This document shows, in pieces, positions 13,324-15,091 of a DNA stretch of 64,000 nucleotides. Numbering within the stretch: the stretch's first letter is position 1; each line of letters opens with the position of its first letter. The stretch comes from Escherichia coli (GTDB lineage: Bacteria > Pseudomonadota > Gammaproteobacteria > Enterobacterales > Enterobacteriaceae), in assembly GCF_001677475.2 (NCBI RefSeq), contig NZ_CP015229.1; one strand, written 5' to 3'. The translations under genes and the position numbers were made by a program. A model generated the notes under the pieces. That model saw only the letters and a program-made list of their open reading frames with translations. It did no database searches and was not told where the DNA came from.

Positions 13324-13575
13324 ATAAATCTCCATTTATCATTTGTGTCGTAAATATGTAATCCATGCAAAATACGTCATTTAAAGCTGGCGATATCATA
13401 ATTGGGAAATTGCGACTTTAATAAGTAGAAGTGTGAGCTGAACGCGCCATTTTATTAGGCATTTGTGCTGAAGAGGGAAAAGTACGCAAATTTATTATCT
13501 CTGTAAATAATATGAGGTGTTTTATATATTTATTATATATATTGTACTTCGGCAAATACTGAGCACAATTAATCA

Positions 13576-13893
13576 ATGCAACCGGTGTTTTTTATTAAAA
13601 AACGTACCGGAGCAATGGGCGGTCATGTCGCTGGCACCGCAGGATTCTGTGTTGCTGTGCCAGCCTTTTATTCATGGTCAATGAGTGAGGGGATTGATAA
13701 AGAAACCAGGTCGTCAGAGCGCACTGATTATCCGCATTACGCCAGTGAAGTTGCACTGGCTTTTGGTTCACGAGTGGTTGGCCTCGAACTGGCAAAAATG
13801 ATTGTGGATGCGTGGCTGGGCGCGCAGTACGAAGGCGGTCGTCATCAACAACGCGTGGAGGCGATTACGGCAATAGAGCAGCGGAGAAATTGA
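13576..13893 (+). pseudogene. rpiB: Decayed remnant of ribose-5-phosphate isomerase B / allose-6-phosphate isomerase (rpiB)
   Basis: C-terminal ...SSERTDYPHYASEVALA-FGSRVVGLELAKMIVDAWLGAQYEGGRHQQRVEAITAIEQRRN matches RpiB, but the central catalytic segment (ICGTGVG region, about 50 residues) is missing and the N-terminus is unrelated. Confidence 0.6.
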
Positions 13894-13961
13894 GATTCAT
13901 CCACTACTTGCATGGATGAGTAATGACTAATGTGGATAGAGTTTCTTTTTGAGGTTGGCTA

Positions 13962-14291
13962 ATGAAACGCTTTCCGCTATTTCTTTTATTCACCCTGCTC
14001 ACGCTGTCCACCGTTCCGGCCCAGGCCGATATTATCGACGACACCATTGGCAATATTCAGCAGGCGATTAACGACGCTTATAACCCTGACCGTGGGCGAG
14101 ACTATGAAGATTCGCACGACGACGGCTGGCAGCGTGAAGTGAGCGACGATCGGCGCAGACAATATGACGACCGCCGCCGCCAGTTTGAAGATCGCCGCAG
14201 GCAGCTGGACGATCGCCAGCGCCAGCTTGATCAGGAGCGTCGGCAACTGGAGGATGAAGAGCGGAGAATGGAAGATGAGTATGGGCGATGA
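13962..14291 (+). CDS. yjdP: Secreted low-complexity protein YjdP
   Basis: 109-aa ORF, signal peptide MKRFPLFLLFTLLTLSTVPAQA, then repeated DDRRRQ-type charged repeats. Confidence 0.8.
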   Translation: MKRFPLFLLFTLLTLSTVPAQADIIDDTIGNIQQAINDAYNPDRGRDYEDSHDDGWQREVSDDRRRQYDDRRRQFEDRRRQLDDRQRQLDQERRQLEDEERRMEDEYGR

Positions 14292-14332
14292 GGTAGGCTC
14301 GGGTGAGGGGGCCAGCGAGCACATTCTCCCCA

Positions 14333-15091
14333 TCACGCCACCCCAATCTCCATCCCATCAAACCCCGCCTCAAACCCCGACGGCAGTGCGTTTTCCATCA
14401 GCCACGCATCAAACTGGTGGCTGATATGGGTCAGAATCACCCGTGGCGAGCGGATAACCTGATTCAGCGCAAGCACGGTATTTAAATCACAGTGATTACG
14501 CGGTGCATCCTCGCGCGGCGGGTGGCTGCAATCAATCACCATTACCTGCGGCTGATTATTGCGTAAAAATTTCAGCGTTTTTTCCGGCAAGCCAGCGGTG
14601 TCAGACAGCCACGCCACCCGGCTGTGTGCCGTTTCCAGCAGATAACCGAAGGTCAGTTTTGAGTGGTTGAGCGGCAGCGGCGTGACCTGTAATCCCTGCA
14701 AATCAAACATCACAAATGGCTCCACCGTGTGGCTGAAATCAAGCAGGCCCGGATGTTTAAACAGATCGTCGCAGCCCTGTTCATCCGGCGGGCCGTAGAT
14801 CGGGATCGAATCGCCCACGCCCCAGCGCAGCGGAAACAGCCCCTGCACGTGATCCATATGGTAGTGCGTCAGCAAAAACTGCTGGAACGATCCGGGCGAC
14901 CAGCGATCGGCGAGATCGTGCAGCCCGGCGTCGATCAGGGTGATCGCGTCGTTAAACTTCACGACGCCGCTGCATGGCTGGCGGCGATACTGCGGTGAGC
15001 GCCGCGCTCTGGCGCAGGCCGCGCACTCACAGCCCCATGCGGGAACGCCCTGTGCGCCGCCAGTGCCAGTAAGTGTGAGGGTCAGGCTCAT
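14333..15091 (-). CDS. phnP: Phosphoribosyl 1,2-cyclic phosphate phosphodiesterase PhnP (metallo-beta-lactamase fold)
   Basis: 252-aa ORF with HYHMDH motif; last gene of the phn operon. Confidence 0.9.

Follow-up and report, generated by a model that had tools for sequence, protein, structure and literature searches.

SAH (ER-K) domains, such as those of myosin VI and myosin X, are long charged helices of Glu, Lys and Arg that act as a lever or spacer inside larger proteins. Hydrophilins and LEA-like proteins are recognised by a Gly content above 6% together with high hydrophilicity. YjdP has a curated family of its own (NF041443 in NCBIfam, PF28054 in Pfam), of which the protein studied here is a member with no structural difference. 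Curated databases already list the gene, its protein and the repeat under that family name, so sighting them is no discovery. A signal peptide followed by DDRRRQL heptads is also the plan of the members from Citrobacter, Buttiauxella, Cronobacter, Entomohabitans and a Klebsiella MAG. For RcsB, the consensus binding site is TN(G/A)GAN4TC(T/C)NA (PMC7913699), and sites for its homodimer usually lie just 5' of the -35 element (PMC5651002).

Here we describe yjdP within an Escherichia coli window, the whole stretch of 64,000 nucleotides that was analysed. We consider it probable (roughly 0.6) that this known gene encodes an exported three-part protein with a long SAH-like helix and is expressed from an Rcs-type, activator-dependent promoter. 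The features of the locus are as follows.

13576..13893, + strand: chimeric rpiB remnant ORF, the scar of an als/rpiB deletion; it lies outside yjdP and carries DNA 5' of its promoter (Pfam, BLASTP, DNA alignment)
13891..13904, + strand: RcsB-box-like motif TGAGATTCATCCAC (phylogenetic footprinting, fit to the consensus)
13928..13933, + strand: predicted -10 hexamer TAATGT (invariant T1, A2 and T6)
13951..13954, + strand: Shine-Dalgarno sequence GAGG, 7 nt 5' of the yjdP ATG (sequence)
13962..14291, + strand: yjdP coding sequence, 109 codons plus stop (ORF listing, NF041443 match)
13962..14027, + strand: Sec-type signal peptide, residues 1-22, predicted cleavage between AQA and D (n-, h- and c-regions, -3/-1 Ala rule)
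14028..14081, + strand: N-terminal amphipathic helix of the mature protein, DIIDDTIGNIQQAINDAY, residues 23-40 (dN/dS, AF2)
14082..14141, + strand: acidic variable linker, residues 41-60 (AF2 pLDDT, family alignment)
14142..14288, + strand: seven heptads DDRRRQ[Y/F/L/M], residues 61-109, forming with residues 55-60 a predicted helix of about 53 residues and 8 nm (shuffle tests, AF2)

yjdP is a conserved gene beside an als/rpiB deletion scar

The ORF at 13962..14291 (+) starts with ATG and encodes a product of 109 aa. The original prediction had named it YjdP, and the name is correct. The NF041443 profile ('DDRRRQL repeat protein YjdP') scored 148.2 bits against a cutoff of 90, with profile positions 1-101 of 101 aligned to residues 1-103. 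PF28054, which postdates the Pfam release used in our profile scan, is the precomputed domain on all homologue matches, and the identical protein occurs on at least 1000 contigs of the sequence collection, under the name 'MULTISPECIES: DDRRRQL repeat protein YjdP'. A single residue change, R52H, separates it from K-12 YjdP. Sub-threshold Pfam matches (DUF7900, DUF4140 and others) reflected low complexity only. NCBIfam matches to the FlbB collar protein, RNase Y, MutS2 and HmpF were far under their cutoffs and compositional, sharing only a charged helix.

yjdP was found in 5,404 of 5,426 complete E. coli genomes. Disruption of the frame in most relatives finds no support: at least 80% of the gene is covered in 5,398 of the 5,426, and a yjdP CDS is annotated in every listed record (the frame itself was read in the translated loci). 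Overall dN/dS against Citrobacter farmeri is 0.10, and synonymous sites are near saturation in the yjdP comparisons (pS 0.56-0.88). In the upstream alignments, the GAGG motif is shared by E. coli, E. fergusonii and C. farmeri. yjdP is a real gene, near-universal in E. coli and under purifying selection.

The position of yjdP at a junction left by als/rpiB loss, also proposed originally, was confirmed by the adjoining ORF (13576..13893). BLASTP against K-12 RpiB shows residues 29-53 joined to residues 107-149 across a 53-residue gap, and the Pfam LacAB_rpiB profile is matched only at positions 102-138 of 138. K-12 DNA could be aligned to the remnant region; the K-12 gene order is yjcS-alsKECABR-rpiB-yjdP-phnP. 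The als-less layout (at least 80% of the query covered) occurs in 1,569 of 5,408 genomes, about 29% of E. coli.

Long ORFs can arise from repetitive DNA, and an antisense ORF of 116 aa (13986..14336) overlaps yjdP. The probability that the yjdP frame arose by chance in GC-rich repetitive DNA, or that the antisense ORF is the real gene, is nevertheless negligible, and judged from the conservation pattern this reading is already refuted. The dN/dS of about 0.1 with saturated synonymous sites argues for the + frame, as do the conserved signal peptide, promoter and Shine-Dalgarno sequence, the matches to curated HMMs and an RNA-seq signal that is that of the sense gene. A function linked to the neighbouring genes, in allose/ribose-5-phosphate (rpiB, als) or phosphonate (phn) use, would fit the location of rpiB 68 nt upstream of yjdP in K-12, E. 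fergusonii and the Klebsiella MAG, and the convergent arrangement of yjdP with phnP in most genera. We regard such a link as very unlikely and already largely refuted, and rejected it on the variable synteny. The gene 5' of yjdP differs between lineages, and yjdP is retained despite the als/rpiB deletion in that 29% of E. coli and the loss of phn in E. fergusonii. Moreover, yjdP and phn are convergent rather than co-oriented, and with imipenem the RNAs of rpiB and yjdP change in opposite directions.

YjdP is predicted to be exported and has a three-part plan

The signal peptide was called by rule, from its n-, h- and c-regions and the Ala residues at -3 and -1. It consists of MKRF, the 12-residue hydrophobic core PLFLLFTLLTLS and TVPAQA, cleaved before D; its n-region is basic, and the mature N-terminus is predicted to be DIIDD. 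All family members have an A-x-A site followed by D or N, whilst the signal sequence itself is divergent (dN/dS 0.27-0.75). YjdP contains no Cys and hence no lipobox with Cys at +1. The predicted product is a Sec-exported, non-lipidated protein.

The mature chain comprises 87 aa (about 11 kDa, pI 4.6, GRAVY -2.27, Gly 4.6%). Its net charge is -9, with -8 in residues 23-60 and -1 in the repeat, and its charged-residue fraction is 0.54, rising to 0.67 in the repeat. The export signal and polyampholyte character assigned to the protein at the outset were correct. Its description as almost entirely D/E/R/Q holds for residues 60-108 (80%) but not for the whole mature chain (66%), in which residues 23-60 differ, being an Ile-rich helix and an acidic linker.

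The conserved family plan runs from an amphipathic helix rich in Ile through an acidic, flexible linker to 6 or 7 DDRRRQ[L/F/Y] heptads. The N-terminal helix carries an a/d-type seam (I25, I29, I32, I36, A39) and is the most constrained segment, with a dN/dS of 0.02 against both E. fergusonii and C. farmeri; both AF2 models make it helical, with a modest pLDDT of about 59. The linker is the most variable stretch of the family alignment, and AF2 pLDDT falls below 50 at mature residues 22-30 (precursor 44-52). The heptad region has a dN/dS of 0.045 with synonymous sites near saturation. Alleles with 6, 7 and 9 heptads exist, of which the 7-heptad form is dominant and the 6-heptad allele is present in 18 of 5,404 complete genomes. 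The exact length of the helix is thus not absolutely fixed, and the idea of a strict length ruler was rejected.

The heptads are predicted to form one long charged helix

Residues 61-109 are in-register repeats: SDDRRRQ, YDDRRRQ, FEDRRRQ, LDDRQRQ, LDQERRQ, LEDEERR and MEDEYGR. Identity autocorrelation over residues 56-108 is 0.57 at lag 7, 0.46 at lag 14 and 0.44 at lag 21. Restricted to residues 61-109, the lag-7 autocorrelation is 0.62; in 20,000 shuffles that preserved composition, no lag between 2 and 14 ever gave a value as high. The near-periodic repeats described originally are thus upheld by the periodicity check. At the DNA level, Tandem Repeats Finder places a period of 21 nt at 14145-14227, with a match level of only some 75%.

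The repeat is also patterned in charge. Across 53 residues, 35 i/i+3 and i/i+4 pairs are favourable versus 4 unfavourable. Shuffles gave a mean pair difference of 1.1 (sd 6.3), and the observed margin was reached by 0 of 20,000. AF2 run on the single sequence predicts a helix over residues 55-107 with pLDDT up to 97-98, and the alignment-based model predicts one over residues 33-86 of the mature chain at pLDDT 80-94; pTM is low in these models (0.37-0.40). AF2 tends toward over-confidence on charged helices, and Asp favours a helix less than Glu does. A PDB sequence search with YjdP gave a best match at E = 2.4 and Foldseek of the model against the PDB gave 0 matches; there is no solved structural analogue.

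Most likely, then, the heptads form one long rigid helix with a predicted length of about 8 nm. Dense intrahelical salt bridges between Asp/Glu and Arg would stabilise it as in SAH domains, a point that we consider strongly inferred. With similar strength, the long helix appears to keep a narrow, conserved hydrophobic stripe at heptad position a, flanked by Arg at d and e, unlike a typical SAH. In six heptads position a, the only hydrophobic one, reads Y, F, L, L, L and M, whilst position d is R/E throughout (RRREEE). Y46, L67 and L74 (mature numbering) are invariant across the family. Because of the salt-bridge charge pattern, the AF2 helix and a hydrophobic residue at a only, the repeat is probably neither disordered nor a canonical coiled coil, the two states suggested by the original prediction. 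Flexibility is apparent only in the linker (residues 41-54).

A monomeric SAH would not typically carry such a conserved hydrophobic stripe, and YjdP may self-associate. It could be a dimeric or trimeric coiled coil in which assembly starts at the Ile-rich N-terminal helix and the long helices are joined along the Leu/Phe/Tyr stripe, giving a periplasmic strut or fibre of Lpp-like length. Consistent with this, the heptad phase is strict, an invariant hydrophobic residue recurring at intervals of 7 through six heptads, and the N-terminal seam has true 3-4 spacing. With Leu set at d, the first three heptads have Arg at g and Asp/Glu at the next e, a register that, as read from the sequence, would allow interhelical salt bridges. 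However, none of the six heptads has a hydrophobic residue at the second core position, which is always Arg or Glu, charge pairing in the last heptads is repulsive (Glu-Glu), and intrahelical i/i+4 bridges give a better account of the charge pattern. We therefore treat self-association of this kind as a minority possibility. The proposal that YjdP is a disordered periplasmic polyampholyte, serving to buffer or bind cations (Mg2+, Ca2+, polyamines) or as a protectant of the hydrophilin type, is quite unlikely. It would fit the charge content, GRAVY, pI and net charges of the mature chain and of residues 23-60, together with the co-induction of yjdP with osmotic and desiccation genes. Against it, a buffer would need neither a strict period of 7 nor optimised salt bridges, AF2 predicts the helix at very high confidence, and the repeat is almost electroneutral. 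The Gly content is also below that of hydrophilins, although the hydrophilicity is high. A long helix stabilised by salt bridges along its own length remains the preferred reading of the repeat.

A conserved upstream module suggests control by the Rcs system

The candidate RcsB box overlaps the rpiB remnant's stop codon at its start, and the centre of the box lies about 42 nt 5' of the transcription start, which is predicted at about 13939-13941. The letters at 13891-13902 are TGAGATTCATCC, with TAnnnT 25 nt further on. The block TTGRGAnTnnTCY is invariant in O157:H7 and in at least nine lineages with unrelated genes upstream of it (rpiB, a hybrid kinase, a nitroreductase and others). Of the 9 positions that the RcsB consensus specifies, TGAGATTCATCCAC agrees at 8, with C in place of the last A; it also shares 10 of 14 bases with TAAGATTAGTCCTG, a consensus-matching site in the bdm-osmC intergenic region. 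The box pattern occurs once in the 64-kb window against 0.34 expected per 64 kb, so the short pattern alone is not rare. Each of the 14 yjdP loci compared contains a single copy of the composite of box and -10 pattern, always 5' of yjdP, and the spacing between the two parts is fixed and gap-free across lineages in two upstream alignments.

The promoter was found solely by phylogenetic footprinting. There is no good -35 element (TACTTG at 13905-13910, +), and a generic sigma-70 scan of 13340-14400 found no consensus promoter, as one would predict if transcription depends on an activator. In a terminator check downstream, the fold of 14286-14350 did not outperform shuffled sequences (z = 0.11), and an Rfam search gave no real match.

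Published RNA data show that yjdP is expressed. Under LolCDE inhibition its level rose from 10.6 to 100-112 expression units (9.5- to 10.6-fold), together with osmB, bdm, wca, rcsA, ivy and spy (PMC5105897). RpoS and Cpx genes also rise under this inhibitor, so another regulator could drive yjdP. With imipenem, yjdP increased from 478 to 672 reads while upstream rpiB fell, and yjdP reads were about 5-fold above those of rpiB (PMC6286996, Table S2). Searches of the literature and supplements found no proteomic evidence or mutant phenotype for yjdP, and yjdP has no entry in the supplements of the colicin M, DapB/Dxr, early-antibiotic and extracytoplasmic-stress studies. Our literature search on yjdP likewise found no paper linking it to RcsB and no mention of an Rcs-type promoter module or an SAH-like reading. 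Taken together, the upstream alignments and consensus fit suggest that yjdP is switched on by the Rcs envelope-stress system.

Proposed role of YjdP

From the comparative and published data we infer that yjdP is transcribed from its own activator-dependent promoter. Its sole conserved upstream elements would be the RcsB-box-like site abutting a poor -35 and the TAnnnT -10. Activation of the Rcs phosphorelay, for instance by lipoprotein mislocalisation or peptidoglycan damage, would then lead to production of YjdP. Speculatively, periplasmic YjdP may be a non-enzymatic, stress-induced binding or spacer protein, with the conserved N-terminal helix and an Arg-Leu-Arg face on the long helix as its contact surfaces and an anionic envelope polymer or a protein as its partner.

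A bolder version of this role, which we consider rather improbable, is that YjdP is the first stand-alone SAH-type periplasmic protein in bacteria. It would be an RcsB-induced, rigid charged rod of about 8 nm with a conserved Ile-zipper head. Its Arg-Leu-Arg face would dock on an anionic component of the envelope: peptidoglycan stem peptides, LPS phosphates, colanic acid or periplasmic glucans. Alternatively, its acidic head would sequester cationic antimicrobial peptides or lysozyme. If true, such a rod would be a new class of envelope-stress effector beside Ivy, MliC and Spy.

YjdP is a nearly universal E. coli envelope protein of unusual design. The conserved module of box and -10 makes yjdP as a direct RcsB target a cheap, testable hypothesis, and the three-part plan marks the N-terminal Ile seam, the Leu stripe and the heptad number as targets for mutation. 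Confirmation would add a small periplasmic effector to the Rcs regulon and provide an example of a bacterial SAH-like helix. This would appeal to envelope-stress specialists without changing the field.

Comparison with known systems

Charged 7-residue repeats outside the cytoplasm are also found in the 'QLEDGRR' heptad stalks of FtsX-type ABC permeases (P0161, P0166), which have a similar composition and match YjdP weakly in HMMER (E = 4e-5 to 2e-4). Those stalks, however, are inserts in membrane proteins of 1,200 aa, and the likeness is one of composition and periodicity rather than common descent.

The LTXXQ proteins Spy, CpxP and ZraP resemble YjdP in being small, helical, exported and co-induced by the LolCDE inhibitor (spy 31-fold, cpxP 12.6-fold and yjdP 9.5-fold; PMC5105897). 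Their repeat architecture is unlike that of YjdP, which has no match to the LTXXQ or Metal_resist Pfam models at E values up to 1.

Braun's lipoprotein Lpp and domain II of TolA share with YjdP a periplasmic location and a similar helix length (about 50 residues, about 8 nm). By contrast, YjdP has neither a lipobox nor a membrane anchor, has one hydrophobic core position per heptad and shows no sequence relationship to them (best PDB E at least 2.4, none by Foldseek). One YjdP homologue carries the automatic JGI name of a TolA-type 'membrane protein involved in colicin uptake'.

SAH domains offer a further likeness. More than 60% of the residues in the YjdP helix are charged, the charges are well mixed (kappa 0.08), and AF2 models an isolated helix. 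Opposite-charge pairs at i/i+3 and i/i+4 are dense, as is characteristic of an SAH over about 30 residues or more, and here span 53 residues (35 versus 4). The YjdP helix nevertheless departs from typical SAH domains in using Asp, Arg and Gln with zero Lys, where they use Glu, Lys and Arg, and in keeping a conserved hydrophobic residue in each heptad, where an SAH has no seam. Finally, YjdP is a stand-alone exported bacterial protein rather than a lever or spacer within a larger one.

yjdP is a conserved gene of a small enterobacterial family

By every test applied, the protein encoded in the window belongs to the YjdP family, which is already known and named. NCBIfam's equivalog model NF041443 ('DDRRRQL repeat protein YjdP', cutoff 90) matched it at 148 bits, and at least 1000 contigs carry the identical sequence, named 'MULTISPECIES: DDRRRQL repeat protein YjdP [Enterobacteriaceae]'. 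A single residue change, R52H, separates it from K-12 YjdP. The Pfam domain PF28054 'YjdP' is precomputed on all homologues; our local Pfam scan, run on a copy older than PF28054, gave only sub-threshold noise. The family is small, with 50 clusters (50% identity) among 1.84 billion representatives at E ≤0.001, confined to Enterobacteriaceae (Escherichia, Shigella, Citrobacter, Buttiauxella, Cronobacter dublinensis, Entomohabitans and a Klebsiella MAG).

13962..14291, + strand: yjdP open reading frame, ATG start, 109 aa

The widespread frame disruption that the original prediction had raised as a risk did not appear in the loci translated. yjdP DNA was found in 5,404 of 5,426 complete E. coli genomes, with at least 80% coverage in 5,398, and the CDS was annotated in every record listed. 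For the whole gene compared with Citrobacter farmeri, dN/dS was 0.10; by segment it was lowest in the N-terminal helix (0.02) and the repeat (0.045), followed by the linker (0.11), and highest in the signal peptide (0.54), and synonymous differences between genera were near saturation (pS 0.56-0.88). This pattern rules out a chance ORF, and a spurious reading frame is vanishingly improbable. The gene is genuine and conserved, and its product is a small acidic protein with a three-part architecture and a Sec-type signal peptide. A minus-strand ORF of 116 aa (13986..14336) overlaps nearly the whole gene. The same pattern excludes it as a real gene; selection supports the plus frame only, and the antisense frame appears to be a by-product of GC-rich repetitive codons.

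Both flanks of yjdP are insertion-prone

The gene order in K-12 is yjcS-alsK-alsE-alsC-alsA-alsB-alsR-rpiB-yjdP, convergent with phnP. The als operon is missing from the window, and the ORF directly upstream of yjdP (13576..13893) matches the LacAB_rpiB model over its last 37 positions only, joining residues 29-53 of K-12 RpiB to residues 107-149. Ahead of it lies a fragment similar to the yjcS-alsK spacer. In als-less strains the RefSeq annotation gives this ORF as an intact 105-aa 'RpiB/LacA/LacB family sugar-phosphate isomerase'; judged by its sequence, it is a chimeric scar to be treated as a pseudogene. yjdP does therefore lie at the junction left by als/rpiB loss, as had been proposed. 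The als-less layout was present at ≥80% coverage in 1,569 of 5,408 E. coli genomes. The upstream slot is a known variable site, occupied in EHEC by the OI167 island (PMC10128022; also comparison locus L014). In O157:H7 the OI167 hybrid histidine kinase gene lies upstream of yjdP, its end 68 nt away (L014 2913-3314), and the island boundary extends into the first yjdP codons, the signal peptide beginning MKRHSTLFLF... rather than MKRFPLFLLF.

Downstream, the yjdP-phnP spacer measures 41 nt in the window (14292-14332), 91 nt in TUM14771 (L001 3953-4043) and 146 nt in K-12 (L002 11537-11682), where a REP-type G-quadruplex/hairpin element is listed (PMC5100583). No convincing terminator hairpin was found downstream of yjdP in the window (fold z = 0.11). 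The yjdP-phn gap holds a ParE/Phd toxin-antitoxin pair in C. farmeri (L005 5327-5862) and two CBRB-domain genes in the Klebsiella MAG (L010 4315-5189). This differing cargo, together with the variable upstream slot, indicates that both flanks are insertion-prone. A role tied to als or phn is most improbable, since synteny is variable and yjdP survives the loss of either neighbour.

YjdP carries a predicted long salt-bridged helix

Residues 1-22: signal peptide, MKRF-PLFLLFTLLTLS-TVPAQA, three Sec regions, Ala at -3 and -1
DIIDDTIGNIQQAINDAY: N-terminal helix, hydrophobic residues at 25, 29, 32, 36 and 39 (3-4 spacing)
Linker: variable and acidic; net charge of residues 23-60, -8

The clear signal peptide originally described was confirmed by these Sec features, and YjdP contains no cysteine anywhere in its sequence and is therefore not a lipoprotein. 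An alignment of 14 mature sequences revealed a shared plan of N-terminal helix, acidic linker and heptads. The spaced hydrophobics of the first helix read as a true a/d seam. The description of the mature protein as almost entirely D/E/R/Q held for residues 60-108 (80%) but not for the whole mature chain (66%), residues 23-60 being of a sequence type unlike the heptad region.

Seven heptads run from residue 61 (SDDRRRQ YDDRRRQ FEDRRRQ LDDRQRQ LDQERRQ LEDEERR MEDEYGR), and the near-periodicity described was borne out. For residues 56-108 the identity autocorrelation was 0.57 at lag 7, 0.46 at lag 14 and 0.44 at lag 21, against 0.04-0.29 for the remaining lags up to 20. Over residues 61-109 the lag-7 value was 0.62; not one of 20,000 composition-preserving shuffles got that high at its best lag between 2 and 14. 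Tandem Repeats Finder reported a 21-nt period at 14145-14227 with matches of only ~75%, and the repeat is thus old and maintained at the protein level. Along the heptads, position a is Y/F/L/L/L/M and position d R/R/R/E/E/E; acidic residues occupy b and c, Arg predominates at e and f, and Gln stands at g. Across the 14 sequences there are six or seven heptads, ending EDEERR[M/L], and Y46, L67 and L74 (mature chain) are invariant.

Heptad copy number is polymorphic, at 6, 7 or 9 units (P0039, P0026, P0038, P0048, P0022; L016). The dominant form has seven heptads and 109 aa. A six-heptad, 102-aa allele (P0039) occurred in 18 of the 5,404 complete genomes (≥95% DNA identity) and on >1000 contigs in a large collection; other 102-aa alleles lose a different 21-nt unit. 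E. albertii YjdP has nine heptads (123 aa), and rare alleles of 100, 104 and 108 aa are out of heptad phase. The signal-peptide core (13980-14010) contains a 9-nt tandem repeat encoding F-T-L, whose expansion in some E. coli strains (LFTLLTLSTV to LFTLFTLFTLFTLFTV) gives 112-, 115- and 118-aa alleles (L011, L012 and L013 at 301-657/648/639). Several evenly sampled rows of the genome search carry such alleles, so they are not rare.

Within segment 55-107, 35 opposite-charge i/i+3 or i/i+4 pairs were counted against 4 like-charge pairs, a difference reached by 0 of 20,000 shuffles (mean 1.1, sd 6.3). The repeat is near-electroneutral (net -1; fraction charged 0.67; kappa 0.08). AlphaFold2 predicted from the single precursor sequence one helix at 55-107 (core pLDDT 97-98), its 53 residues spanning ~8 nm. 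For the mature chain with the 14-sequence alignment, helices were predicted at 2-18 (pLDDT ~59) and 33-86 (pLDDT 80-94), with a low-confidence gap at 22-30 (<50) and a pTM of 0.37. Neither sequence searches nor Foldseek of the model found a related solved structure.

The charge pairing and the single confident helix argue against the disordered repeat first suggested, and disorder is not expected. A disordered cation buffer or hydrophilin is an unlikely identity for YjdP, whose glycine content (4.6%) fails the hydrophilin criterion. A canonical coiled coil has hydrophobic residues at both a and d; YjdP has them at a, but d is Arg or Glu, and in the canonical sense this part of the earlier interpretation is not supported either. 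On the helical wheel, Arg residues from d and e border the hydrophobic stripe. A weak self-associating coiled coil is a possible but doubtful alternative. We infer with fair confidence that the heptads form a long salt-bridged helix, and they are best read, on the model, as a rod like that of a single alpha-helix (SAH) domain.

A conserved RcsB-box-like module precedes yjdP

13890-13902: TTGRGAnTnnTCY block, conserved in nine lineages
13928-13933: TAnnnT (predicted -10), at an invariant gap-free distance downstream of the box

The ~130-200 nt preceding yjdP were aligned across nine lineages with unrelated upstream genes: rpiB lies there in E. coli, E. fergusonii and the Klebsiella MAG, Entomohabitans has a hybrid kinase, and C. 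farmeri, Buttiauxella, Cronobacter and two SRA contigs have other genes. Only three blocks were conserved, namely these two and the Shine-Dalgarno with start codon. As synonymous sites are saturated between genera, the invariance of the box and -10 bases implies selection. Despite the OI167 kinase upstream, O157:H7 retains TGAGAATCCTCC at an unchanged -71 relative to the ATG, and both the box and the predicted -10 keep their distance from the start codon. The composite pattern occurred exactly once in each of 14 yjdP loci, always just upstream of yjdP, and was absent from the one examined locus without the gene; the 13-mer box pattern alone occurred once in the 64-kb window (0.34 expected).

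Apart from its last base, the 14-mer TGAGATTCATCCAC fits TN(G/A)GAN4TC(T/C)NA, the RcsB homodimer box established from structural and EMSA work (PMC7913699). TAAGATTAGTCCTG, a match to the same consensus in the K-12 bdm-osmC intergenic region, agrees with the 14-mer at 10 of 14 bases. The box adjoins a poor -35 (TACTTG), 17 nt from the -10, and is centred near -42, the usual location of RcsB homodimer sites (PMC5651002).

Induction of yjdP RNA under envelope stress is documented, answering the concern that expression might be lacking. A LolCDE inhibitor raised it from 10.6 to 100.6 and 112.3 expression units (9.5- and 10.6-fold; PMC5105897 Table 1 and supplements), together with osmB, bdm, wca, rcsA, ivy and spy; the inhibitor also induces RpoS- and Cpx-dependent genes. 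Under imipenem, yjdP reads rose from 478 to 672 (PMC6286996 Table S2) while rpiB fell, and yjdP had ~5-fold more reads than rpiB, supporting a separate yjdP promoter. The conserved module and the co-induction under the LolCDE inhibitor favour direct activation through the predicted RcsB site as the most economical hypothesis, though not a proven one, and we hold with fair confidence that the promoter is RcsB-activated. No rcsB-mutant data for yjdP were found in the literature, and the literature and supplementary tables searched held no proteomic evidence or mutant phenotype. In a study of acid-resistance regulators, yjdP is listed with a 'genic' binding peak (K-12 4311501) and stands among the most strongly repressed genes (0.28-fold; PMC5217608).

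Possible function and comparison with known systems

The original prediction is thus upheld in its signal peptide, repeats and junction, and not in disorder or a canonical coiled coil. Constraint is strongest in the N-terminal amphipathic helix and the Leu stripe, which, speculatively, may mark these parts as contact surfaces and speak against a bulk physicochemical role. The Arg-Leu-Arg face of the long helix might suit an anionic ligand, and the acidic head and linker cationic ones; both suggestions are speculative. What is added to the known gene, a putative conserved RcsB-type promoter module and a modelled SAH-like helix, is modest and testable.

Relatives carry automatic JGI names ('RNase H-like nuclease', 'Skp family chaperone', 'membrane protein involved in colicin uptake') that are most likely charged-repeat artefacts, and the same holds for the weak hits on FlbB, RNase Y and MutS2. 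YjdP is not an LTXXQ chaperone, the Pfam scan showing no match to that family at E ≤1. FtsX-type permeases bearing extracytoplasmic QLEDGRR heptad stalks also gave weak matches, a compositional analogy. With SAH domains YjdP shares the charge design, but whereas textbook examples lack a hydrophobic seam, YjdP retains one narrow hydrophobic stripe.
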